DNA of 47,428 bases from a virus (Duplodnaviria > Heunggongvirae > Uroviricota > Caudoviricetes): the IMG/VR virus record IMGVR_UViG_2574180238_000003, one strand, 5' to 3'. Below, in pieces: positions 1,419 through 21,256 of the stretch. How positions within the stretch are numbered: the first letter of the stretch is position 1; the number at the start of each line of letters is the position of its first letter. The notes beneath the pieces are model-generated. The model was not told the origin of the DNA, made no database searches, and saw nothing but the letters and a program-made list of their open reading frames with translations. The position numbers were made by a program, and so were the translations under genes.

Positions 1419-3890
1419 TTAAAAATCAGCCTGACTCGGGATCAGTTTTTGCCAGATGGCTGAAACGTATTTTGCCTGGTAACGCGTATCGTGCAGGGCG
1501 TTATGGTGTTCACCTTCGAATGGAATAGTCGTTCTTGCGTCGAAATCCATCACCAGTCCCAGAGCAACCATCGTTCTTACATCGCGATCATTGGTGTAAC
1601 GCCACGGGCAGGGGATCCCCTGCCGTTCATATGAACGGCGTAAAATCACGTTGTCGAAAGTTGCACCGTTACCCCAGACCTGAACAAAAAATTCACCGGA
1701 GTTTTCGTCGATAAATTCCCGGAATTGCAGCAGTGCATCATCCAACGGGATTTCATCGGTCAGAATGGCGGATTGTGCTTCGCGTGACTGTTTCAGCCAC
1801 CACTTAATGGTGTCCCGTTCGATGACCCCGCCTGCGGTTTCCAGATCGATAGTTTTGCTGAATTCTGGCCCCATCTCTCCGGTTGCCGGATCAAAAAACT
1901 TACCGGCTATAGCGTTTATTGGCGCATCAGGATTTTTTCCCATTGTTTCAAGGTCAATCATCAGATGGTGCCACAACCTGCTGGTGGATGTGATTTCACG
2001 ATGACCGTTCACCTTAATTAAGGGATTTGCTGTCTCGCCAGTTTTATTATCGCTGGCGTGATACTGATCGCTGTCAGTGTTCTCCTTGTGCGGATCTTCA
2101 GTGCCTTCCATTTCCTCCGGAGCATTTTCCTGAACTTCAATCAGGCTCTCTCCATCGAATGTTTCCTGGTAGGTTGCGTCGCCCATCACCGCACCACAGT
2201 CAGGACAGTTGCCGCCACCGGTCTGACCGCATGCGGTGCAAACTTTCTCCACTTCCTGTTGCACTGCTGGTTCTGGTTGTTGCTCTTCTGGCCCGTTTTG
2301 TTGCGTATCCGGGCTGTTTTGTTCCGCTTCTGGCTCATTTTGTTTCACGCCGGGCTGATTCTGGCCCTCAGCGTTGCGACTCTGGATCCCTTTCACCCAT
2401 TTCGGATCATTAGGGTCGCTAATCCCTTCAACAAATTCACCACGTGATGCAGCAAGCAATTTATCGGCGTCAGGCTGGCTGATATTGGCTGCCTGCATAA
2501 TTTTGTTTACTTCGTCAGCGGTAACTTTTACCGGCTCTGGTTGTACGGAATCTTCAGCGGTATCTACATTTTGCGGTAAGCCCGTATATGTGCCATTTTT
2601 TCGGGCAAAATATTCCTCTTTTGAGATTTCGGTAGCGCCGGCAGCCAGCGCCTTGTCCAGACCAGAAAGTTTGTTTGCCCTGCCGTATTTTTCCTCGCCC
2701 TTATCGGTAAAGACGAAATAAAATGGTCCTTCACGCTCTACAGATGGTTCAGCTTCCACCAGGATTTCATTTTTTTGAGTATCGGATTCTGCCGTCTCCA
2801 CTGGAGCAGTTTGTGCTGCTGACGGCTGGAGAGTATCAGCAGAGCTCTGGTCTGTTTCTTCATGCTCAAACACGCCCTTTGTTGTCAGGTATTCGCTGAT
2901 ATATTTGTTCAGTGCAACGGGATCTTTGTGAATGTCGATCGGACGTTCACGGACAAGGCCAAAAATAGTCTGACGGTCATAGCCAAGTGCTTCGGGCTGT
3001 TTGCGCATTGATGCTGAGATACGCTTCCAGTCTTCGCGATCCTTGTCGATAACCTCATTTGTCGCCCAGCGATGGATGGTACCGTCAATATTTCCCGCAT
3101 TCACATCACCGGGCCAGAGGGCGCAGGCCAGCTCATTGTCGAGTGTTTTCCATGTCTGTTTGTATTCTCGGCGAACGGCAACAGTGACATCCCCGGTTTT
3201 TTCAGCAGAGTTTTCAGTGTTCTGTTGGTTTACTCTGGAACGGGCGATATCAACGACAGATGTGTATTTCCCGGTTTCCTTGCGTTCACCTTCGCGACGT
3301 TTTTTCCAGATGCGCATCTCTGCCTGAATTTCGGGCCATTTAGCAGCAGGCTTGCATTTATGCTTAACCCACCCGATGGCATGCAGCTTAAGCTCCGGAT
3401 ACATGGCGTTAACTTCTGGCATTTTCATCAACGCTTCAACGATATGGCCGTCGAATGTTGCCATGTCTTCCTGCAACAATTCCTGTGCGCTAATCACCAT
3501 ATCAACAGTGATGTTTTCACATGTGTCGAACTTAACCATGACGGCGTTCTGTACTTCAGGGGCCAGCTTGTCAAAGGTGACGTTCATCGGATCGGATTCA
3601 GTCTCGACCGGGACAAAGGAAGCAGACGCCTCATCCCAGCGGTTTTCCTGCATATATTCGGTATCCCAGGAATCGAGGGTAGGGCGGGGTATGCCGGGTT
3701 TATCCTCACAGACAATAAATTTATAAGCGCAGTCCTGAGCTGCCGGGAATTGCTCCAGAAATTGCCAGTGAAATTTTGCGCGTGCGCGACGCTCATCACC
3801 GGCTTCAATGGCAGTGGCCACCGCAACAGCGCTATCTTCTTTTATGGCCTGTTCATCAGGAATAGCCGCGCAAATAAAGATTTTACTCAT
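1419..3890 (-). CDS. Exodeoxyribonuclease VIII (RecE)-family protein with C-terminal DnaQ-like DEDDh 3'-5' exonuclease domain
   Basis: 823-aa ORF. Central Cys-rich segment (CTACGQTGGGNCPDCGAVMGDATYQETF) and the flanking KLLAASRGEFVEGISDPNDPKWVKGIQ segment resemble the RecE linker region as recalled. C-terminal ~200 aa carry DEDDh motifs read directly: MIDLETMG (DxE), WGNGATFDN, HNALHDTRY (Hx4D). Confidence 0.75.
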   Translation of the reverse strand: MSKIFICAAIPDEQAIKEDSAVAVATAIEAGDERRARAKFHWQFLEQFPAAQDCAYKFIVCEDKPGIPRPTLDSWDTEYMQENRWDEASASFVPVETESDPMNVTFDKLAPEVQNAVMVKFDTCENITVDMVISAQELLQEDMATFDGHIVEALMKMPEVNAMYPELKLHAIGWVKHKCKPAAKWPEIQAEMRIWKKRREGERKETGKYTSVVDIARSRVNQQNTENSAEKTGDVTVAVRREYKQTWKTLDNELACALWPGDVNAGNIDGTIHRWATNEVIDKDREDWKRISASMRKQPEALGYDRQTIFGLVRERPIDIHKDPVALNKYISEYLTTKGVFEHEETDQSSADTLQPSAAQTAPVETAESDTQKNEILVEAEPSVEREGPFYFVFTDKGEEKYGRANKLSGLDKALAAGATEISKEEYFARKNGTYTGLPQNVDTAEDSVQPEPVKVTADEVNKIMQAANISQPDADKLLAASRGEFVEGISDPNDPKWVKGIQSRNAEGQNQPGVKQNEPEAEQNSPDTQQNGPEEQQPEPAVQQEVEKVCTACGQTGGGNCPDCGAVMGDATYQETFDGESLIEVQENAPEEMEGTEDPHKENTDSDQYHASDNKTGETANPLIKVNGHREITSTSRLWHHLMIDLETMGKNPDAPINAIAGKFFDPATGEMGPEFSKTIDLETAGGVIERDTIKWWLKQSREAQSAILTDEIPLDDALLQFREFIDENSGEFFVQVWGNGATFDNVILRRSYERQGIPCPWRYTNDRDVRTMVALGLVMDFDARTTIPFEGEHHNALHDTRYQAKYVSAIWQKLIPSQADF

Positions 3891-10949: not shown

Positions 10950-11159
10950 AAACGGTTTGCGGGGAAAGAAGAGTTAAGTAGAATTGCTGCGGGTGCTTGA
11001 GGCTGTTTGCCTCGGGCATGCCGCCGTAAGGCAGACAGAGAAAAGCCCCAGTTAACATTACGCGTCTTGCAGGACGCTTAACATTAATCTGAGGCCCAAT
11101 CTATGCTTCACAAACGTAGGTTAGCCTCTTACGTGCCGAAAGGCAAGGAGAAGCAGGCT

Positions 11160-11315
11160 ATGAAGCAGCAAAAGGCGATGTTAATCGCCCTGATCGTCAT
11201 CTGTTTAACCGTCATAGTGACGGCACTGGTAACGAGGAAAGACCTCTGCGAGGTACGAATCCGAACCGGCCAGACGGAGGTTGCTGTCTTCGTAGACTAC
11301 GAATCTGAGAAGTAA
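11160..11315 (+). CDS. hokD: Hok/Gef-family type I toxin (HokD/RelF-like)
   Basis: MKQQKAMLIALIVICLTVIVTALVTRKDLCEVRIRTGQTEVAVF... matches the Hok family signature and recalled RelF/HokD; GC hairpin ggcgagggagaaatccctcgcc (11325-11346) just downstream, typical of hok mRNA 3' ends. Confidence 0.85.
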   Translation: MKQQKAMLIALIVICLTVIVTALVTRKDLCEVRIRTGQTEVAVFVDYESEK

Positions 11316-12819: not shown

Positions 12820-13179
12820 ATGCTCATAGATTTGGTTTTACCTTACCCGCCGACGGTGAACACTTACTGGCGTCGTCGTGGCAGCACATATTTTGTCTCA
12901 AAAGCCGGGGAGCGTTATCGCCGGGCAGTGGCGCTTATTGTTCGCCAGCAGCGGCTGAAATTAAGACTGTCCGGACGGCTGGCAATAAAAATTATTGCAG
13001 AGCCACCGGATAAGCGTCGTCGTGACCTGGACAATATTCTGAAAGCGCCGCTGGATGCGCTGACGCATGCGGGAATGTTAATGGACGATGAGCAGTTTGA
13101 TGAAATCAATATTGTACGTGGTCAGCCAGTATCTGGTGGACGGCTGGGTGTGAAGATTTACAAAATTGAGAGTGAGTGA
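12820..13179 (+). CDS. rusA: RusA Holliday-junction resolvase
   Basis: 119-aa ORF; LPYPPTVNTYWR... N-terminus and the DKRRRDLDN acidic motif match the RusA family; nin-region position upstream of Q. Confidence 0.85.
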   Translation: MLIDLVLPYPPTVNTYWRRRGSTYFVSKAGERYRRAVALIVRQQRLKLRLSGRLAIKIIAEPPDKRRRDLDNILKAPLDALTHAGMLMDDEQFDEINIVRGQPVSGGRLGVKIYKIESE

Positions 13180-13187
13180 GCGTAAAT

Positions 13188-13718
13188 ATGATATATCCGG
13201 AAATTACAGGCAAAAGCGGCGAACATTTACGCCTGAACACGCTGGAAGCAGTCTGGATCCAGGGGAAATTACGGATGTGGGGGCGGTGGTCGTATATCGG
13301 TGGGGGTAAATCCGGAAATATGTTTAACCGGTTACTGGTTTCGAAAAAACTGACGAAAACCGCAGTTAATGAGGTTTTACGCAGAATGAAGAAATCCGGG
13401 CTGGATAAACCGGAACTTGAGGCATTTTTTCGGGATATGACAAGAGGAAAGCAGAAGAGCTGGTTGTCACATTGTACAGACACAGAGGCGTTGATTATTG
13501 ATCGCGTTATCAGTGAGGTGCTTGGGGAATATCCCGGGCTAATCAATGTTCTCCGGCAAAGGTACGAAGGACGGGGAATGAGTAAGAGAAAAATGGCAGA
13601 ATGTTTAAATCGTACTCACCCGGAATGGTGCTTCAGCACATGTGAGAAACGTATTGCAGGTTGGTTAGCCGTGGCTGAACACATGCTTTATGTACCTATG
13701 CACGATTCATTTCGATAA
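13188..13718 (+). CDS. Late-gene antiterminator Q
   Basis: 176-aa ORF directly upstream of the late region (methylase, tRNAs, lysis genes), downstream of rusA; Cys/His-containing C-terminus; assigned mainly by position and size. Confidence 0.65.
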   Translation: MIYPEITGKSGEHLRLNTLEAVWIQGKLRMWGRWSYIGGGKSGNMFNRLLVSKKLTKTAVNEVLRRMKKSGLDKPELEAFFRDMTRGKQKSWLSHCTDTEALIIDRVISEVLGEYPGLINVLRQRYEGRGMSKRKMAECLNRTHPEWCFSTCEKRIAGWLAVAEHMLYVPMHDSFR

Positions 13719-14307: not shown

Positions 14308-15366
14308 ATGTTTAATACTGTAAAAATATCCAGTTGTGAGTTGATCAACGCTGACTGCCTGGAATTTATCCGGTCGTTACCCGAAAATTCTGTTGACCTG
14401 ATAGTCACGGCCCCGCCGTACTTTAAAGTGAAGCCTGAGGGCTGGGATAACCAGTGGAAGGGCGACGATGATTACCTGAAATGGCTGGACCAGTGTCTGG
14501 CGCAGTTCTGGCGGGTGCTGAAACCTGCCGGAAGTCTTTACCTGTTCTGTGGCCATCGCCTGGCATCTGACATTGAAATCATGATGCGAGAACGCTTCAG
14601 TGTGCTGAACCATATTATCTGGGCGAAGCCGTCCGGACGCTGGAACGGGTGCAACAAGGAAAGCCTGAGGGCGTATTTCCCCGCCACAGAGCGCATTCTG
14701 TTCGCGGAACATTATCAGGGGCCGTATCGTCCGAAAGATGCCGGGTATGAGGCGAAGGGCAGGGCACTGAAACAGCATGTGATGGCACCGCTGATTGCTT
14801 ACTTTCGTGATGCGCGTGCTGCCCTGGGGATAACGGCAAAACAGATTGCTGATGCCACAGGAAAGAAAAACATGGTGTCGCACTGGTTCAGTGCCAGTCA
14901 GTGGCAGTTACCGAACGAAAGCGATTATCTGAAATTACAGGTGCTGTTTGCCCGGGTGGCAGAAGAGAAGCATCAGCGGGGTGAACTGGAAAAGCCCCAC
15001 CACCAGCTGCTGGAGACGTATACTTCACTGAACCGGCAGTATGCGGAACTGCAGAGTGAATATAAGCATCTGCGGCGGTATTTTGGCGTGACGGCGCAGG
15101 TGCCGTACACGGATGTGTGGACGCATAAACCGGTGCAGTACTATCCCGGGAAACATCCGTGCGAAAAACCGGCAGAAATGCTGCAGCAGATAATCAGCGC
15201 GAGCAGTCGTCCGGGTGACCTGGTTGCAGATTTTTTCATGGGGTCGGGTTCGACAGTCAAAGCCGCGATGGCGCTGGGGCGGCGTGCAACTGGCGTTGAG
15301 CTGGGGACTGAACGTTTTGAGCAGACGGTCAGAGAAGTTCAGGATTTAGTCAGTCAGAACGGATGA
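14308..15366 (+). CDS. Orphan DNA methyltransferase (beta-class amino-MTase)
   Basis: 352-aa ORF; catalytic TAPPY motif near the N-terminus and AdoMet-binding FMGSGST near the C-terminus (circularly permuted order typical of beta-class MTases); no adjacent restriction enzyme. Confidence 0.85.
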   Translation: MFNTVKISSCELINADCLEFIRSLPENSVDLIVTAPPYFKVKPEGWDNQWKGDDDYLKWLDQCLAQFWRVLKPAGSLYLFCGHRLASDIEIMMRERFSVLNHIIWAKPSGRWNGCNKESLRAYFPATERILFAEHYQGPYRPKDAGYEAKGRALKQHVMAPLIAYFRDARAALGITAKQIADATGKKNMVSHWFSASQWQLPNESDYLKLQVLFARVAEEKHQRGELEKPHHQLLETYTSLNRQYAELQSEYKHLRRYFGVTAQVPYTDVWTHKPVQYYPGKHPCEKPAEMLQQIISASSRPGDLVADFFMGSGSTVKAAMALGRRATGVELGTERFEQTVREVQDLVSQNG

Positions 15367-15406: not shown

Positions 15407-15482
15407 GGCCCTTTAGCTCAGTGGTGAGAGCGAGCGACTCATAATCGCCAGGTCGCTGGTTCAAATCCAGCAAGGGCCACCA
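15407..15482 (+). tRNA. tRNA with CAU anticodon (Ile2/lysidine-type, ileZ-like; Met not excluded)
   Basis: 76-nt cloverleaf: acceptor GGCCCTT/AAGGGCC, D-arm GCTC..GAGC, anticodon loop CTCATAA, T-loop GGTTCAAATCC, 3' ACCA encoded; close to recalled E. coli ileX. Confidence 0.85.
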
Positions 15483-15846: not shown

Positions 15847-16275
15847 ATGTATTGCCGTGCTGTACCGGTTCTTGTTTTGATATTAGCCAGTCTGACAACT
15901 GGCTGCACAAAAGATGTATCGACAAATAATCATGATGCTTCTCTGTATCACTCAGATAAATTAATAAAGTCGCAAAATTTGAGCTCATCGGAACGTACCC
16001 CTGATGCCAGTGAAGAAATCCGGCAGTATGCCATTCAGGTCAGGAAAGCCATAGAAGAACAGTTAAAGGATGCGAGTAAGTATTCAGGAAAAGAGTGTTC
16101 ACTGAGAATGTATATGGCCCCGAATGGTCTTCTGCTACAGGTTAAAAGAGAAAGCGGTGATCCCGATTTATGTCGTGAAGCGATGAATGCAGTAAAGAAT
16201 GCTGATATACCATCACCACCGTCTTCAGGAGTATATAAAGCATTTAGAAATGGCGTGCTGGATTTTAAACTCTGA
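15847..16275 (+). CDS. Lipoprotein with TolA C-terminal domain (domain III)-like region
   Basis: Signal peptide plus lipobox LTTGC; C-terminal ~80 aa (IQVRKAIEEQLKDASKYSGKECSLRMYMAPNGLLLQVKRESGDPDLCREAMNAVKNADIPSPPSSGVYKAFRNGVLDFKL) align to recalled E. coli TolA domain III including the conserved Cys pair; AT-rich upstream flank. Confidence 0.7.
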   Translation: MYCRAVPVLVLILASLTTGCTKDVSTNNHDASLYHSDKLIKSQNLSSSERTPDASEEIRQYAIQVRKAIEEQLKDASKYSGKECSLRMYMAPNGLLLQVKRESGDPDLCREAMNAVKNADIPSPPSSGVYKAFRNGVLDFKL

Positions 16276-16334: not shown

Positions 16335-16590
16335 TGTGAAGTGTTAAATCCCTCACAATTCAGTAAGTTGACAGTTGCCTGTCAGACTGAGCATTTGTTA
16401 AAAAAATTTCGCATGGTGAATCCCCCTGTGCGGAGGGGCGACTGGTGAACGGTATGATCTCTTTGATGATCGTAAGCGAGAATACGCGGGTTTGGTGTCA
16501 CCGGGCTGAACTCACCGGGAGGCACCCGGCACCATGCTCATGGTGATACAGAAATGCGGCTTCAGCCCCTCTCCGGAGGGGCTTTCTTAT
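16335..16590 (+). repeat. Structured repeat unit 1 of 4 (candidate sRNA)
   Basis: Conserved blocks ttaaatccctcacaattcag, gcatggtgaatccccctgtgcggaggggc, caccgggaggcacccggcaccatgc, and terminator hairpin gcccctctccggaggggc with T-run. Confidence 0.6.
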
Positions 16591-16746
16591 GGACAAAAAA
16601 AGCCCGCGCTGGGAGACGCGGGCGGCAAGGAATAAACAATAAAACGTGAAGTAATACTTCAACTGGCGAATAATACCCGACAGTAATCACTCTGCGCAAT
16701 AGCGTGGCCTTTTTCGAATTGCGGGCTGTAGTCTCCCTTCTGCCGG

Positions 16747-16900
16747 GTGTCCTGGTTGCAGATTTCTTCATGGGGTAGGGTTCGGCAGTTAAAGCAGCGA
16801 TGGCGCTGGGGCGTCGTGCAACTGGCGTTGAGCTGGATACCGGGCGTTTTGAACAGACTGCGCAGGAAATCAGGGATGTATTTAGCGGGAGCGGTTTGCA
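16747..16900 (+). pseudogene. 3' fragment of a DNA methyltransferase gene (paralogous to 15216-15366), in-frame stop
   Basis: Nucleotide similarity to the 3' end of the intact methylase gene; translates as VLVADFFMG*GSAVKAAMALGRRATGVELDTGRFEQ... Confidence 0.7.
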
Positions 16901-16970
16901 GAAGTAATCTCCCAAAATGCCATTTTTGGAATATACTGGTATTAAGTCTTTTTGCTCAGGTTAATTCAAA

Positions 16971-17696
16971 ATGGATGTTGCCTGCTCTGTGGTCCTGATT
17001 CGCTATCCGATAGATATTTTTCTTGAAAAAGAAAAAGTTTCACTCGATGCCGGAAGTGTTATGCTTGTTGCCAGAAATATAAGAGGGCTTTTCTGTGCTT
17101 ATGCCGACAGAGTGAAAATGGCAGATATAAGTAACAGCGTCGTCAATCAGTATCTGGAAAGGGAGTGTGAACTGACGGAGTATACACCGACAAAAATGCC
17201 TCTTTATTTGATGTCTGATATTTACAATACGGAACTGGCGGAGGCTTTAATAACCCAGCATAGTGAATCCAGTGATACTTTGAAGGATTTCTCTGTTATA
17301 ACCGCATTTTCATGTATCTCCTTATTTGCAACAGACAGACGTCTGCCATTATTTTTGTCCGGTGCTGTAAATAATATCAGCTGTAAAGTAAGGGCTATAA
17401 TTCAGACCGACATATCGGCAGGCTGGATGCTTGGTGTGATTGCATTACAATTGCATATGAGCGAAAGCTTGTTGAAGCGAAAACTTAAGGATGAAGGTTA
17501 TAGCTTTAGTCGGTTGTTGCTGGAGGAGCGAATGCGTGTTGCTGTTAATCTTGTATGTTTCCAGCGAGAGTGTGGACAAGCGATAGCGGAAAAATGTGGT
17601 TACTCAAGTAAGTCCTACTTCATTTCTGTATTTCACCAGTATTATGGTGCACCACCTGAGAGCTATGCATATTTGCAGAAAGCAGACGTTATCTGA
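16971..17696 (+). CDS. AraC-family transcriptional regulator
   Basis: 241-aa ORF; C-terminal AraC-type dual HTH (GWMLGVIALQLHMSESLLKRKLKDEGYSFSRLLLEERMRVAVNLV...KCGYSSKSYFISVFHQYYGAPPESY); AT-rich gene in the accessory block. Confidence 0.8.
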   Translation: MDVACSVVLIRYPIDIFLEKEKVSLDAGSVMLVARNIRGLFCAYADRVKMADISNSVVNQYLERECELTEYTPTKMPLYLMSDIYNTELAEALITQHSESSDTLKDFSVITAFSCISLFATDRRLPLFLSGAVNNISCKVRAIIQTDISAGWMLGVIALQLHMSESLLKRKLKDEGYSFSRLLLEERMRVAVNLVCFQRECGQAIAEKCGYSSKSYFISVFHQYYGAPPESYAYLQKADVI

Positions 17697-17785
17697 TGTT
17701 TTTTCATCAGGCATATATTGATTGACTGTATTAGATATAGTCTGAATGTGTTCAGCATAAAAAGTTATAATCATTTGGTGTTTGC

Positions 17786-18064
17786 GTGAATATTGATGAG
17801 AAAATCAGATGTAGCCAACTGTTACAGCGTATTGAAGCCGTCAATGTGGAACGAACAAAGGTCTTCAGTCGTCTGACAGTTTTATTTTGTACCCCTGATC
17901 GACGTTCAGGTCAGGAGATGGTTCTTCTGGATGTAGATGCACTTCGGAACGTCTGTGAGGAGTTCACCGCGGCTAATTCGGAGTTACTGAGTCTTGTTCA
18001 GGAGTACAACAGAATTGCAGGTAGTAACGGTTTTGATGAAATCAAAATTATATCCCGTGGATAA
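17786..18064 (+). CDS. Hypothetical protein
   Basis: 92-aa ORF (GTG start, or ATG 17796) downstream of the AraC gene. Confidence 0.35.
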   Translation: MNIDEKIRCSQLLQRIEAVNVERTKVFSRLTVLFCTPDRRSGQEMVLLDVDALRNVCEEFTAANSELLSLVQEYNRIAGSNGFDEIKIISRG

Positions 18065-18304
18065 AACATATCCTGTATATTTATGTTGTTACATACAGGC
18101 GCTTTTAGTATCTGCCGCACGGCAGTTGTACTTCAGAATAAGATGCTTTTGTGACTGGTGGTGTTGTATCTGGGGTTAGCCAGTAGGCAGGTTCAGAGAG
18201 TCCGGTGGTAATTATGTGTATGCAGTGGTTGTTGCTGTACCGTGGGCAAGTTCTGGAACTGGCTTCGTCCATTGTAGATGATTGTTAGCTGGATATCAGT
18301 TACC

Positions 18305-18548
18305 TCATGGAAATGTTAAATGACTCACAATTCGGTTGATGGGCTATTGTCTGATCGATGGAAGTCTTGTAAAAACGAGCCAGCATAGTGAATCCCCCTG
18401 TGCGGAGGGGCGTCTGACATGGTCTCCATAGCGATGGTCACAATACGCAGATTCAGTAGTCAGGCTGAATCTACCGGGAGGCACCCGGCACTATGCTGCT
18501 TATGGTGTATACATAGCGATCGGCCCCTCTCCGGAGGGGCTTTTTTTG
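18305..18548 (+). repeat. Structured repeat unit 2 of 4
   Basis: Same block order as unit 1; long-range helix gcatagtg (18383-18390) / cactatgc (18489-18496) carries a compensatory base-pair change relative to unit 1; terminator gcccctctccggaggggc plus T7. Confidence 0.6.
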
Positions 18549-18564
18549 TGCGGGAAAAGGCTGT

Positions 18565-18806
18565 GTTGTTAAGTGTTAAATTCCTCACAGTTCAGATGGT
18601 TGATGCTTGCCTGTCTGAGGGGGCGTTGTTAAAAAAGTTCTGCATGGTGAATCCCCCTGAGCGGAGGGGCATATCAGCGCAGGTGTTTCTACTCTATCCT
18701 TTCTGTGCGGGTTCAGGTGCTGATACTGAACTCATCGGGAGGCACCCGGCATCATGCATATGGTTAACAGACACGTAGCGAAGCCCCTCTCCGGAGGGGC
18801 TTTTTT
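18565..18806 (+). repeat. Structured repeat unit 3 of 4
   Basis: Same blocks; helix gcatggtg / catcatgc (G-U wobble); terminator gcccctctccggaggggc plus T6. Confidence 0.6.
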
Positions 18807-18824
18807 ATGCAGGGAAAAGGCTGT

Positions 18825-19062
18825 GTTGTGAAATGTTAAATTCCTCACAATTCATGAGGTTGATGATTGTCTGATTGATGAGGAGTTTGTTAAAAAAAAC
18901 GGGCATGGTGAATCCCCCTGTGCGGAGGGGTGATATCGTATCATTTCCTGTGTGGCCGACTGATATCACGGACATTTGTTCACCGGGAGGCACCCGGCAC
19001 CATGCAGTATACAGAGATTAGGCATACATCCAGGCTCCTCATCGCAGGAGCCTTTTTACATG
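18825..19062 (+). repeat. Structured repeat unit 4 of 4
   Basis: Same blocks; helix gcatggtg / caccatgc; different terminator sequence (ggctcctcatcgcaggagcc plus T5) in the same position. Confidence 0.6.
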
Positions 19063-19291
19063 TAAAAAAAAAAACGCTCCTGGGAAGAGCGGTTGGCAAG
19101 GAAGCAAGGAATAAATAACAAAACGTGAAGTAATTTATTCAGCACCCTAATAATACCTTAGAGTAATCACATTGCGCAACTGTAAGGGCGTATTTCTTTT
19201 TTGCGGGCTGTTTTTCTGTGTGACTTTTGTGTTTCCGGAGGTCAGCCCGTGCCTTCTCTGACTCAGAACATTATCCCGGCCGGGAGGATTC

Positions 19292-21256
19292 ATGGCATTT
19301 AAACACTACGATGTGGTCAGGGCGGCATCGCCGTCAGACCTTGCTGAACGACTGACACAAAAACTGAAGGAGGGCTGGCAGCCATTTGGCAGTCCGGTGG
19401 CCATCACGCCTTATACCCTGATGCAGGCCATTGCGGCGGAAGGTGATGTCACCACACCAGTGGCGGTGACCGGTAATGAGGGTAAGGCGGTGGCTGTCAG
19501 TGCCACCAGCGACCCGGAGTATTACTTTGTTGTGGTTCTGGCAGGGCAGTCAAATGGCATGTCGTATGGTGAAGGTCTTCCGCTGCCGGAGACATATGAC
19601 CGTCCGGACCCGCGCATTAAGCAGCTGGCGCGCCGCAGTACGGTGACACCGGGCGGTGCAGCATGCAAATATAACGACATCATTCCGGCGGACCATTGTC
19701 TGCATGATGTGCAGGACATGAGCCGCCTTAACCATCCGAAAGCGGACCTGTCAAAGGGGCAGTACGGTACCGTGGGGCAGGGGCTGCATATCGCCAAAAA
19801 ACTGCTGCCGTTTATACCGGCGAATGCGGGTATTCTGCTGGTTCCGTGCTGTCGTGGGGGTTCAGCGTTCACCACCGGAGCTGATGGCACATACAGTGAC
19901 GCTGGCGGTGCCTCGGAGAATTCAGCGCGCTGGGGTGTGGACAAGCCGCTGTATAAGGACCTTATCGGTCGAACAAAAGCAGCACTGAAGAAGAACCCGA
20001 AAAATGTGCTGTTTGCCGTGGTGTGGATGCAGGGGGAATTTGATTTTGACGGCACGCCCGGAAATCACGCAGCACAGTTTGGTGCGCTGGTTGATAAATT
20101 CCGTGCAGACCTGGCGGATATGGCAGGCCAGTGCGTCAGTGGCTCTGCTGGCGGTGTTCCCTGGATATGCGGGGACACGACGTATTTCTGGAAGCAGAAG
20201 AACGAATCCACGTACCAGACGGTGTACGGCAGCTATAAAAACAAAACGGAAAAGAATATCCATTTCGTACCGTTCATGACGGATGAGAACGGGGTGAATG
20301 TGCCGACGAACAAACCGGAAGAAGACCCGGACATTCCGGGTATCGGGTATTACGGTTCGAAATGGCGTGACAGCTCAGCCCCCTGGACGTCACAGGACAG
20401 GGCGAGCCATTTCAGCACCTGGGCACGCCGGGGGATTATTTCCGACCGTCTGGCAACGGCGATTCTGGTGCACGCCGGGAGAACCGCTGAATTCATTACC
20501 GGAAAACAGCCTGATATGGTGAAGCCCACCGTACCTTCCGGTGAAGGTCCGGAGAGAGAGGCGGAAGCCCCGGTCAGTAACCGAACCCTGATGAGTCTGC
20601 TGGCATCCGGCGAAGACCTGGCATCACAGGGCTGGCGCTATTATCACAAACCGGCGGGCGGGGACAGTGTTAACAAAAACATTGCTGAAGCGGTGGTCAG
20701 TGATGCGGGGGCTACGGGAGGTAAGGCTCTGCAACTGAACAAACCGGAAAACCACATCTGGTTTCTGGAGCATGATGCAGCCGGACAGGGTGCGGAGTTA
20801 CTGAAGAAGGGCGGACGTGTGAGCGTACGGTTTAAGTTGCCGGGTTCACTGGTGCCGAATCAGTTTGCCCTGGGCATTTACTGGCAGTTGTCGTCCCTGC
20901 CGGAGGGGGTGACGCTGTCAGGAGAAGGTAACGATATGCTGATGTCTTTCTTCCTGCAGACGGATACGACGAACCTGAACGCGATGCATCACAGGAAGCC
21001 GAATGCGAAGCTGGATACATTCGGGGTCTTTGATAACGGATGGCACACGCTGGCTTTTGAGTTTGCCGGAAACAACAGCATTCAGGTGACACCAGTACTG
21101 GATGAGAAACGGGGAGCGGCGTTCACACTGGTGAAGTCACCGGCATCGGGGGCGGCGGACAAACTGCAACTGACCGATATATCAAAATCGGCGACGTATA
21201 CGCTGCTGATTGACAGCATTGCGGTGGAAGTGAACAGCACAGACACTGCGGCATGA
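19292..21256 (+). CDS. NanS-p-type sialate O-acetylesterase (SGNH/SASA hydrolase)
   Basis: 654-aa ORF; GQSN catalytic motif (VVVLAGQSNGMSYGEG); location between Q/tRNAs and the lysis cassette as in Stx-type lambdoid phages. Confidence 0.75.
   Translation: MAFKHYDVVRAASPSDLAERLTQKLKEGWQPFGSPVAITPYTLMQAIAAEGDVTTPVAVTGNEGKAVAVSATSDPEYYFVVVLAGQSNGMSYGEGLPLPETYDRPDPRIKQLARRSTVTPGGAACKYNDIIPADHCLHDVQDMSRLNHPKADLSKGQYGTVGQGLHIAKKLLPFIPANAGILLVPCCRGGSAFTTGADGTYSDAGGASENSARWGVDKPLYKDLIGRTKAALKKNPKNVLFAVVWMQGEFDFDGTPGNHAAQFGALVDKFRADLADMAGQCVSGSAGGVPWICGDTTYFWKQKNESTYQTVYGSYKNKTEKNIHFVPFMTDENGVNVPTNKPEEDPDIPGIGYYGSKWRDSSAPWTSQDRASHFSTWARRGIISDRLATAILVHAGRTAEFITGKQPDMVKPTVPSGEGPEREAEAPVSNRTLMSLLASGEDLASQGWRYYHKPAGGDSVNKNIAEAVVSDAGATGGKALQLNKPENHIWFLEHDAAGQGAELLKKGGRVSVRFKLPGSLVPNQFALGIYWQLSSLPEGVTLSGEGNDMLMSFFLQTDTTNLNAMHHRKPNAKLDTFGVFDNGWHTLAFEFAGNNSIQVTPVLDEKRGAAFTLVKSPASGAADKLQLTDISKSATYTLLIDSIAVEVNSTDTAA

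Follow-up and report, generated by a model that had tools for sequence, protein, structure and literature searches.

The late region of a lambdoid prophage, contained in a 47,428-nucleotide (nt) stretch of viral DNA (IMG/VR record IMGVR_UViG_2574180238_000003, referred to herein as the window), has four paralogous units on its + strand: the first follows a TolA-like cargo gene, and the other three stand in tandem ahead of a nanS-p esterase gene. The question raised by this locus is what these units are and what they might do. A first-pass annotation, made from the letters alone, had described them as a candidate small RNA (sRNA) or riboregulator family and had not recognised their fold as that of a known riboswitch or sRNA. 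We found that the four units are members of an already catalogued prophage sRNA family, Rfam STnc100, which is related to EcOnc27 and PasD.

Membership of the four units in the STnc100 family

An Rfam scan of the whole window matched all four units to RF02076 (STnc100) over model positions 1-206 of 206, with scores of 119.5-172.4 bits against a curated gathering score of 47 bits. The matches place unit 1 at 16382-16594 (172.4 bits), unit 2 at 18354-18549 (119.5 bits), unit 3 at 18614-18812 (134.9 bits) and unit 4 at 18874-19063 (141.3 bits). Since the E-values range from 1e-25 to 3e-39, the similarity among the units is not a product of chance. The long-range helix that had drawn attention to the units is present in the RF02076 consensus, and the supposedly unfamiliar fold was therefore already known. 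The locus reveals no new kind of element: the family has been described and its homologues have been studied experimentally. STnc100, a gammaproteobacterial prophage sRNA first listed in Salmonella, has the closing helix, two conserved hairpins and the terminator in common with the units and does not differ from them in any essential respect, except that a direct tandem of three copies is absent from the family description. Model positions 1-29 cover the leader, which may be either RNA or promoter. STnc100-type RNAs are among the sRNAs most frequently annotated in bacterial genomes, and we found the unit in 1182 of 5426 complete E. coli genomes, in up to 10 places per genome, where it goes without RefSeq annotation.

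A four-way alignment and a repeat search (families D1-D3) recovered the ordered blocks at the places where they had first been noticed. In order, they run from TGTTAAAT-N3-CTCACArTTC through an A-tract, GCATGGTGAATCCCCCTGnGCGGAGGGG, a variable insert (53-77 nt), CCGGGAGGCACCCGGCAyyATGC and a linker (24-26 nt) to a G+C-rich terminator hairpin with a T-run. In every unit the core is closed by an 8-bp long-range helix and the 3' end is formed by an intrinsic terminator. The leader of unit 1 (16342-16410) holds the blocks TGTTAAATCCCTCACAATTCAG (16342-16363), GTTGAC, TTGCCT (16375-16380) and TGTTAAAAAAA (16396-16406), and precedes a structured core (16411-16537) made up of the hairpin CCCCCTGTGCGGAGGGG (16422-16438), the variable insert and the hairpin CCGGGAGGCACCCGG (16515-16529). 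This is followed by the variable linker (16538-16563), which is predicted to be mostly unpaired and stands where PasD has its seed, and by the terminator stem and T-run (16564-16589), identified by a terminator scan and by covariation of helix 6. The corresponding parts of units 2, 3 and 4, likewise on the + strand, are the leaders at 18314-18382, 18574-18641 and 18834-18902, the cores at 18383-18496, 18642-18757 and 18903-19005, the linkers at 18497-18521, 18758-18781 and 19006-19031, and the terminators at 18522-18547, 18782-18807 and 19032-19058. All four unit terminators were detected by the scan, which gave 12 sites in the region against 3.1 expected; it also bore out that the terminator stem of unit 4 (19032-19053) is different in sequence yet self-complementary.

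EcOnc27 (also called sRNA103), EcOnc05 and EcOnc13 of E. coli O157:H7, which we assigned to STnc100 copies by coordinates or probe sequence, belong to the same family and occupy the same slot between cargo and esterase gene. EcOnc27 shares its leader type with unit 1 and its linker and terminator type with unit 4, and the tail and downstream flank of the EcOnc05 locus in the Sakai prophage Sp4 are close to those of unit 1. In contrast, the inserts differ, as do three of the four linkers; the cargo in the window is TolA-like and AraC rather than Shiga toxin, and the convergent partner is of the EcOnc08 type rather than AsxR. We dropped an assignment of unit 3 to EcOnc06, as the probe match covers only ~16 nt. 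PasD1 and PasD2 of enteropathogenic E. coli (EPEC) E2348/69 resemble the units in closing helix, first hairpin and terminator, and PasD2 lies directly upstream of a sialate esterase gene. PasD2 scores 41.4 bits against RF02076 (E = 6.5e-07), below the Rfam cut-off, and 35.4 bits against covariance model R1. The PasD RNAs differ in that the intact CCGGGAGGCACCCGG hairpin is missing, the linker is long and U-rich with the seed UGUGAG, and a strong TTGACT promoter stands without an upstream CTCACA block; TGTGAG, the PasD seed, occurs in none of the four window linkers. According to a 2026 preprint, PasD and STnc100 share an ancestor. StxS and the lambda 6S RNA are likewise short terminated transcripts of the lambdoid late region, and StxS binds Hfq and acts in trans, but these two transcripts are not homologous to the units and come from pR' at tR', immediately after Q, whereas the units lie 2.6-5 kb downstream of Q.

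Covariation of the structured core

The strands of the long-range helix, GCATGGTG and CACCATGC, are 8 bp long and about 107-119 nt apart, and lie at 16411-16418/16530-16537 in unit 1, 18383-18390/18489-18496 in unit 2, 18642-18649/18750-18757 in unit 3 and 18903-18910/18998-19005 in unit 4. The observation that both strands change together in unit 2 was confirmed as a true compensatory change from G-C to A-U. Unit 3 does contain a G-U wobble, but not, as had been reported, at the same position: the two changes sit at adjacent base pairs (alignment pairs 5/125 and 6/124).

A larger alignment had been named beforehand as the check on this structure. We built a covariance model from the four units and the copy of phage 933W and searched it against enterobacterial loci retrieved by a conserved 16-mer. 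This gave 68 matches from ~40 enterobacterial species (genera including Escherichia, Citrobacter, Enterobacter, Superficieibacter, Pantoea and Cedecea), 61 of which are full-length family members. In the alignment of these 68 relatives, standard pairs occupied 91% of cells versus ~44% when the partners were slid by 1-3 columns, and double-sided changes were found at 36 of the 42 pairs; no shuffle reached the observed values. Compensatory changes occurred at six of the eight pairs of the long-range helix, and in the terminator helix all nine pairs covaried. As this alignment had been fitted to the covariance model, the helix test was repeated in an alignment-free manner, using the 8 nt beside two invariant anchors. 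The 55 distinct helix variants obtained in this way (for example GTGTGGTG/CACCACAC, TTGTGGTG/CACCACAA, TTGCGGTG/CACCGCAA, GAGCGGTG/CACCGCTC and TCGCAGTG/CACTGTGG) paired at 82.5%, whereas shuffling the partners gave 70.8% and, in 2000 shuffles, never more than 75.7%. The larger alignment thus does show covariation, and the structure is real. In partition-function folds of the units the core was closed, the linker mostly unpaired and the terminator formed, and when a leader of ~56 nt was added its A-tract was unpaired.

The same data bear on whether the units could be protein-coding, or DNA repeats without an RNA function. An open reading frame (ORF) of 119 amino acids (aa) on the + strand (18419-18778) spans units 2 and 3, and some phage records annotate a 'hypothetical protein' over homologues. 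However, compensatory base-pair changes dominate the variation, the 119-aa ORF had no match in Pfam, and several of the copies in E. coli EDL933 have a ribosomal coverage value <0.3 (others are higher). Protein coding was excluded on the pattern of variation and the lack of a domain in this ORF, which runs across two structured RNA units and is probably spurious, and we attach next to no weight to the coding or simple-repeat explanation as a whole.

Expression of homologues, 5' ends and proposed function

Homologues of the units are expressed and bound by Hfq. In enterohaemorrhagic E. coli (EHEC), Tree et al. (2014) described convergent Hfq-bound sRNA pairs at the cargo slot of eight Sakai prophages, and EcOnc27, EcOnc05 and EcOnc13 gave northern bands as well as peaks in Hfq crosslinking and analysis of cDNA (CRAC). 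In Table S2 of that study, EcOnc27, located after stx2B, is ~235/247 nt long, its 247-nt form being destabilised without Hfq, and EcOnc05 and EcOnc13 are ~222 nt and ~187 nt long, respectively. All 11 copies annotated in EDL933 are transcribed, and one is northern-positive. PasD1 and PasD2 of EPEC were found by Hfq RIL-seq (sequencing of ligated pairs of interacting RNAs), and gave northern bands that were described as showing Hfq-dependent stability; their predicted seed is UGUGAG, positioned in the linker before the terminator. Full-length family matches, covariation in the larger set of sequences, and homologues that are Hfq-bound and visible on northern blots together uphold the initial proposal of a functional structured RNA and candidate sRNA.

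We consider it probable that the units are four separate genes for Hfq-dependent, trans-acting sRNAs that share a scaffold and differ in their linkers, and whose terminators also serve as insulators. Each unit would form its own transcription unit on the late-gene strand, with promoter-like blocks in its leader. Its RNA would be bound by Hfq, with likely contacts at the U-tail and terminator and, in a long form, at the A-tract, and would base-pair in trans, most likely through the linker, in the manner of PasD with its UGUGAG seed. The four window linkers are four different sequences, all predicted to be unpaired. Since the four units have different linkers and different inserts, different target sets are expected.

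Several points weigh against this interpretation. It is inferred that these four copies are expressed, that the linker acts as the seed, that the terminators insulate, and where the 5' end lies. No STnc100-type member has a validated target in the literature, and overexpression of EcOnc27 raises fimZ and espA transcripts by an unproven mechanism. The large conserved core of ~120 nt, which covaries across genera, exceeds what an Hfq-dependent sRNA typically needs, and it is likely to have another or an additional function. One conceivable though rather doubtful explanation is that the core is itself a functional module, which might, for instance, bind a protein, confer stability or act in cis within the late operon, and that linker 'seeds' are swapped by recombination into a portable promoter-core-terminator scaffold; a tandem array would then amount to a battery of sRNAs, each with its own targets, placed where cargo ends. 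A further difficulty is the position of the 5' end, which promoter geometry and PasD would place at the closing helix, and EHEC northern sizes and the CRAC peak 55-75 nt upstream.

The leader may act as a promoter, may belong to a longer RNA form as its 5' part, or may do both. Leaders of the Escherichia type are conserved only in four blocks, namely TCACAATTCAG, GTTGAy, TTGyCTG and TTGTTAAAAA; TTGyCTG and TTGTTAAAAA stand at promoter spacing. RNAalifold gave no pairs across 17 non-redundant leaders, and a conserved leader hairpin was therefore rejected. A start at the helix is favoured by PasD2, whose start as estimated from RNA-seq is the G of GCAUGGUG, preceded by TTGACT-18-TAAAAA-7. In addition, the best sigma-70-like match has a -10 element that ends 5-8 nt before the helix in 23 of 61 copies from many genera, compared with 0-3 copies at each of the other 110 positions. 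As predicted from these sequences, the family as a whole has a promoter that abuts the helix, and this is conserved across genera. A start further upstream is favoured by the Hfq-CRAC peak of EcOnc27, which extends from -40 to +40 around the helix G and covers the A-tract, by northern sizes in EHEC that exceed the distance from helix to terminator by 55-75 nt, and by the EcOnc13 probe, which lies within the leader and points to a longer RNA. The A-tract solely as a -10 element fits the PasD2 5' end and the other genera; this option was contradicted in EHEC by the EcOnc27 CRAC peak, the northern sizes (~222 and ~235/247 nt) and the EcOnc13 probe. There may be either two start sites or long forms derived from upstream transcripts. 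What the locus adds here is that the helix-abutting promoter appears to be conserved across genera, yet the EHEC data imply a longer RNA.

The upstream block is similar to a binding site for CRP, with a 9/10 match to the core centred at -61.5 or -60.5 from the helix G, and the window contains 8 CRP-like sites versus 1.7 expected. In 83 distinct upstream sequences, the left half of the block is weak and variable; its second G is never present and many copies read TTTTA. Because of this weak left half-site, we give a low probability to the idea that the block belongs to a class I CRP-dependent promoter, which would have two TGTGA/TCACA half-sites centred near -61.5 from the start, and the block may itself lie at the 5' end of the RNA. 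A first scan of viral contigs was biased in demanding the TCACA block and found only 11 loci; it was replaced by a search anchored inside the RNA.

The most conserved leader block contains CUCACAA (16350-16358, 18322-18330, 18582-18590 and 18842-18850), the motif that PasD targets in RIL-seq data and to which the PasD seed UUGUGAG is complementary. The motif would be relevant only in a long RNA form that extends over the block; pairing between family members, a possible kind of cross-talk, might then occur. Leader variants also track with severe disease in Stx2 phages, in which an STnc100 copy lies right after the Shiga-toxin genes. In O157:H7, the risk of haemolytic uraemic syndrome has been linked to two polymorphisms after stx2B, T>C at +90 and deletion of a T at +103 (PMC12711010), and both fall in the leader of the 933W STnc100 copy (locus L002 3792 and 3803-3805; window equivalents 16396 and 16407-16409). 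They alter the T of TGnTAAAAA and the TTT between A-tract and helix, and the variant is visible in locus L175. These polymorphisms could change promoter strength or an Hfq site.

The cargo slot, its modules and the neighbouring genes

The window is a lambdoid prophage with matches of 99.8% identity in sequenced E. coli genomes. The late region that holds all units starts with a Q-type antiterminator gene (13176-13718), which is followed on the + strand by an intact DNA methylase (14308-15366), tRNA-Met(CAT) (15407-15482), tRNA-Arg, a gene for a 142-aa protein with a TolA C-terminal domain (15847-16275; Pfam, E = 5.7e-23), unit 1, a 3' remnant of a DNA methyltransferase gene (about 16743-16907), the AraC cassette (16971-18064), units 2-4, a nanS-p-type SASA esterase gene (19292-21256; Pfam), which is the first late gene after the array, and a lysozyme gene. 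The AraC cassette consists of a regulator with an AraC-type helix-turn-helix (16971-17696; Pfam) and a 92-aa ORF (17786-18064). The esterase and AraC genes that the first-pass annotation had named as neighbours were both recovered; unit 1, which it had described as preceding the AraC gene, is better placed as following the TolA-like gene. The units thus lie between Q and the lysis genes and on the same strand, in the cargo ("moron") slot between late promoter and lysis genes. In the same slot of 933W, stx2AB is followed 75 nt on by an STnc100 copy (208 bits) and then by the convergent AsxR gene, and in Sakai Sp4 tRNAs are followed by an STnc100 copy. In a lysogen, the unit terminators would close the cargo cassettes off from nanS-p and the lysis genes, unit 1 closing off the TolA-like gene, and units 2-4 the AraC gene with its 92-aa ORF; during lytic growth, Q-modified RNA polymerase would read through them.

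A multi-helix junction followed by a terminator and lying upstream of a gene is also what would be expected of a riboswitch-like or attenuator leader that controls nanS-p (and AraC) by regulated termination, and when unit 1 is folded by itself, pairing between its first hairpin and the terminator is possible. This antiterminator pairing, seen in the single-sequence fold of unit 1, was not conserved in the family alignment; since terminator stems vary freely and the first hairpin is almost invariant, there is no conserved antiterminator. The downstream gene varies among family members: what comes after unit 1 is a gene remnant, the copies in 933W and Sp4 are separated from the esterase gene by a convergent sRNA and a further hairpin, and PasD1 is reported beside holin and lysozyme genes rather than an esterase gene. 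As the units also bear their own promoter-like elements, we consider such control highly improbable, and the suggestion that they are riboregulators of the genes downstream found no support.

The modules of the units reassort between prophages. Among 111 copies of the Escherichia type we distinguished 12 leader types, 7 insert types and 12 linker/terminator types, which occur in 27 combinations; at least 10 of the linker/terminator types reassort with leaders and inserts. The leader of unit 1 is shared with the 933W copy, the linker and terminator of which are shared with unit 4. As modules are shared across prophages in this way, recombination inside the conserved blocks reshuffles them, and the reassortment of leader, insert and linker modules between prophages accounts for the multiple copies; those in tandem would likewise have come from recombination between units of different prophages. 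Duplicated flanks (repeats D4-D6) and the methylase remnant bracket the AraC cassette, which indicates that the cassette was added by recombination, the remnant being a scar of that event. The less familiar points of this locus are the direct tandem of diverged copies and the reassortment of modules: it adds that diverged copies can stand in direct tandem, and that leaders, inserts and linkers reassort between prophages. Tandem or clustered STnc100-type arrays were also observed elsewhere, with 1+4 copies on an IMG/VR contig (L176 5018-7804), three each in Escherichia albertii and Superficieibacter electus, and four in another locus (the array loci besides L176 being L006 4825-5452, L010 1238-1915 and L115 10188-11955). 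The 2026 preprint reports no tandem or clustered arrangement for PasA or PasD.

This arrangement could also be read as that of cis boundary modules, in which strong insulating terminators and recombination sites for cargo swap are what matters and the RNA is a by-product with little function in trans. The units are always at the 3' edge of the cargo, which ends with stx2B in 933W, consists of tRNAs in Sakai Sp4 and is represented in the window by the TolA-like and AraC genes; their modules reassort at conserved blocks, the bracketed AraC cassette fits a history of cargo exchange, and arrays recur in other genera. A purely cis role would account for where the units are placed. However, a plain terminator needs neither a covarying multi-hairpin core of ~120 nt nor a promoter of its own, and the homologues occur in abundance, bind Hfq and have numerous partners in RIL-seq data. 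We therefore regard a mainly cis-acting role as unlikely, and favour four trans-acting sRNA genes.

Two candidate sRNA genes on the - strand converge on the units, one after unit 1 (16595-16710, terminator 16623-16602) and one after unit 4 (19065-19190, terminator 19091-19075), the second being a paralogue of the first (repeats D4-D6). Both have an intrinsic terminator and the conserved sequence CUUCACGUUUUrUUrUUUAUUCCUUGC, and both are absent from Rfam. The anti-sRNAs AsxR and AgvB of the sRNA dyads are likewise short, terminator-bearing RNA genes on the minus strand that converge on an STnc100 unit in the same slot. The candidates gave no Rfam match to RF02703/RF02702 (AsxR/AgvB) at E-values up to 1, compared with 88 bits for AsxR of 933W, and an identification with AsxR or AgvB was rejected on these grounds. 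They match instead the EcOnc08/21 locus of Sakai Sp4, for which a northern band of ~271 nt has been reported, and an EPEC sRNA found by RIL-seq, E2348C_1409.E2348C_1408.IGR, with the predicted seed CUUGCG. A 271-nt form of the candidate after unit 4 would run antisense over the nanS-p start codon at 19292.

Among the other genes of the window, the TolA C-terminal cargo protein is possibly a decoy for TolA-dependent entry of phages or colicins. The tRNA at 15407-15482, called tRNA-Met (CAT) by ARAGORN, has a RefSeq homologue annotated as tRNA-Ile (ileZ type, which reads AUA after lysidine modification), as in Stx phages. A toxin-antitoxin locus of the hok/sok type lies at 10991-11165 on the + strand (Rfam sok, 115.8 bits) with an ORF at 11103-11315, and a homologous genome annotates hokD there.

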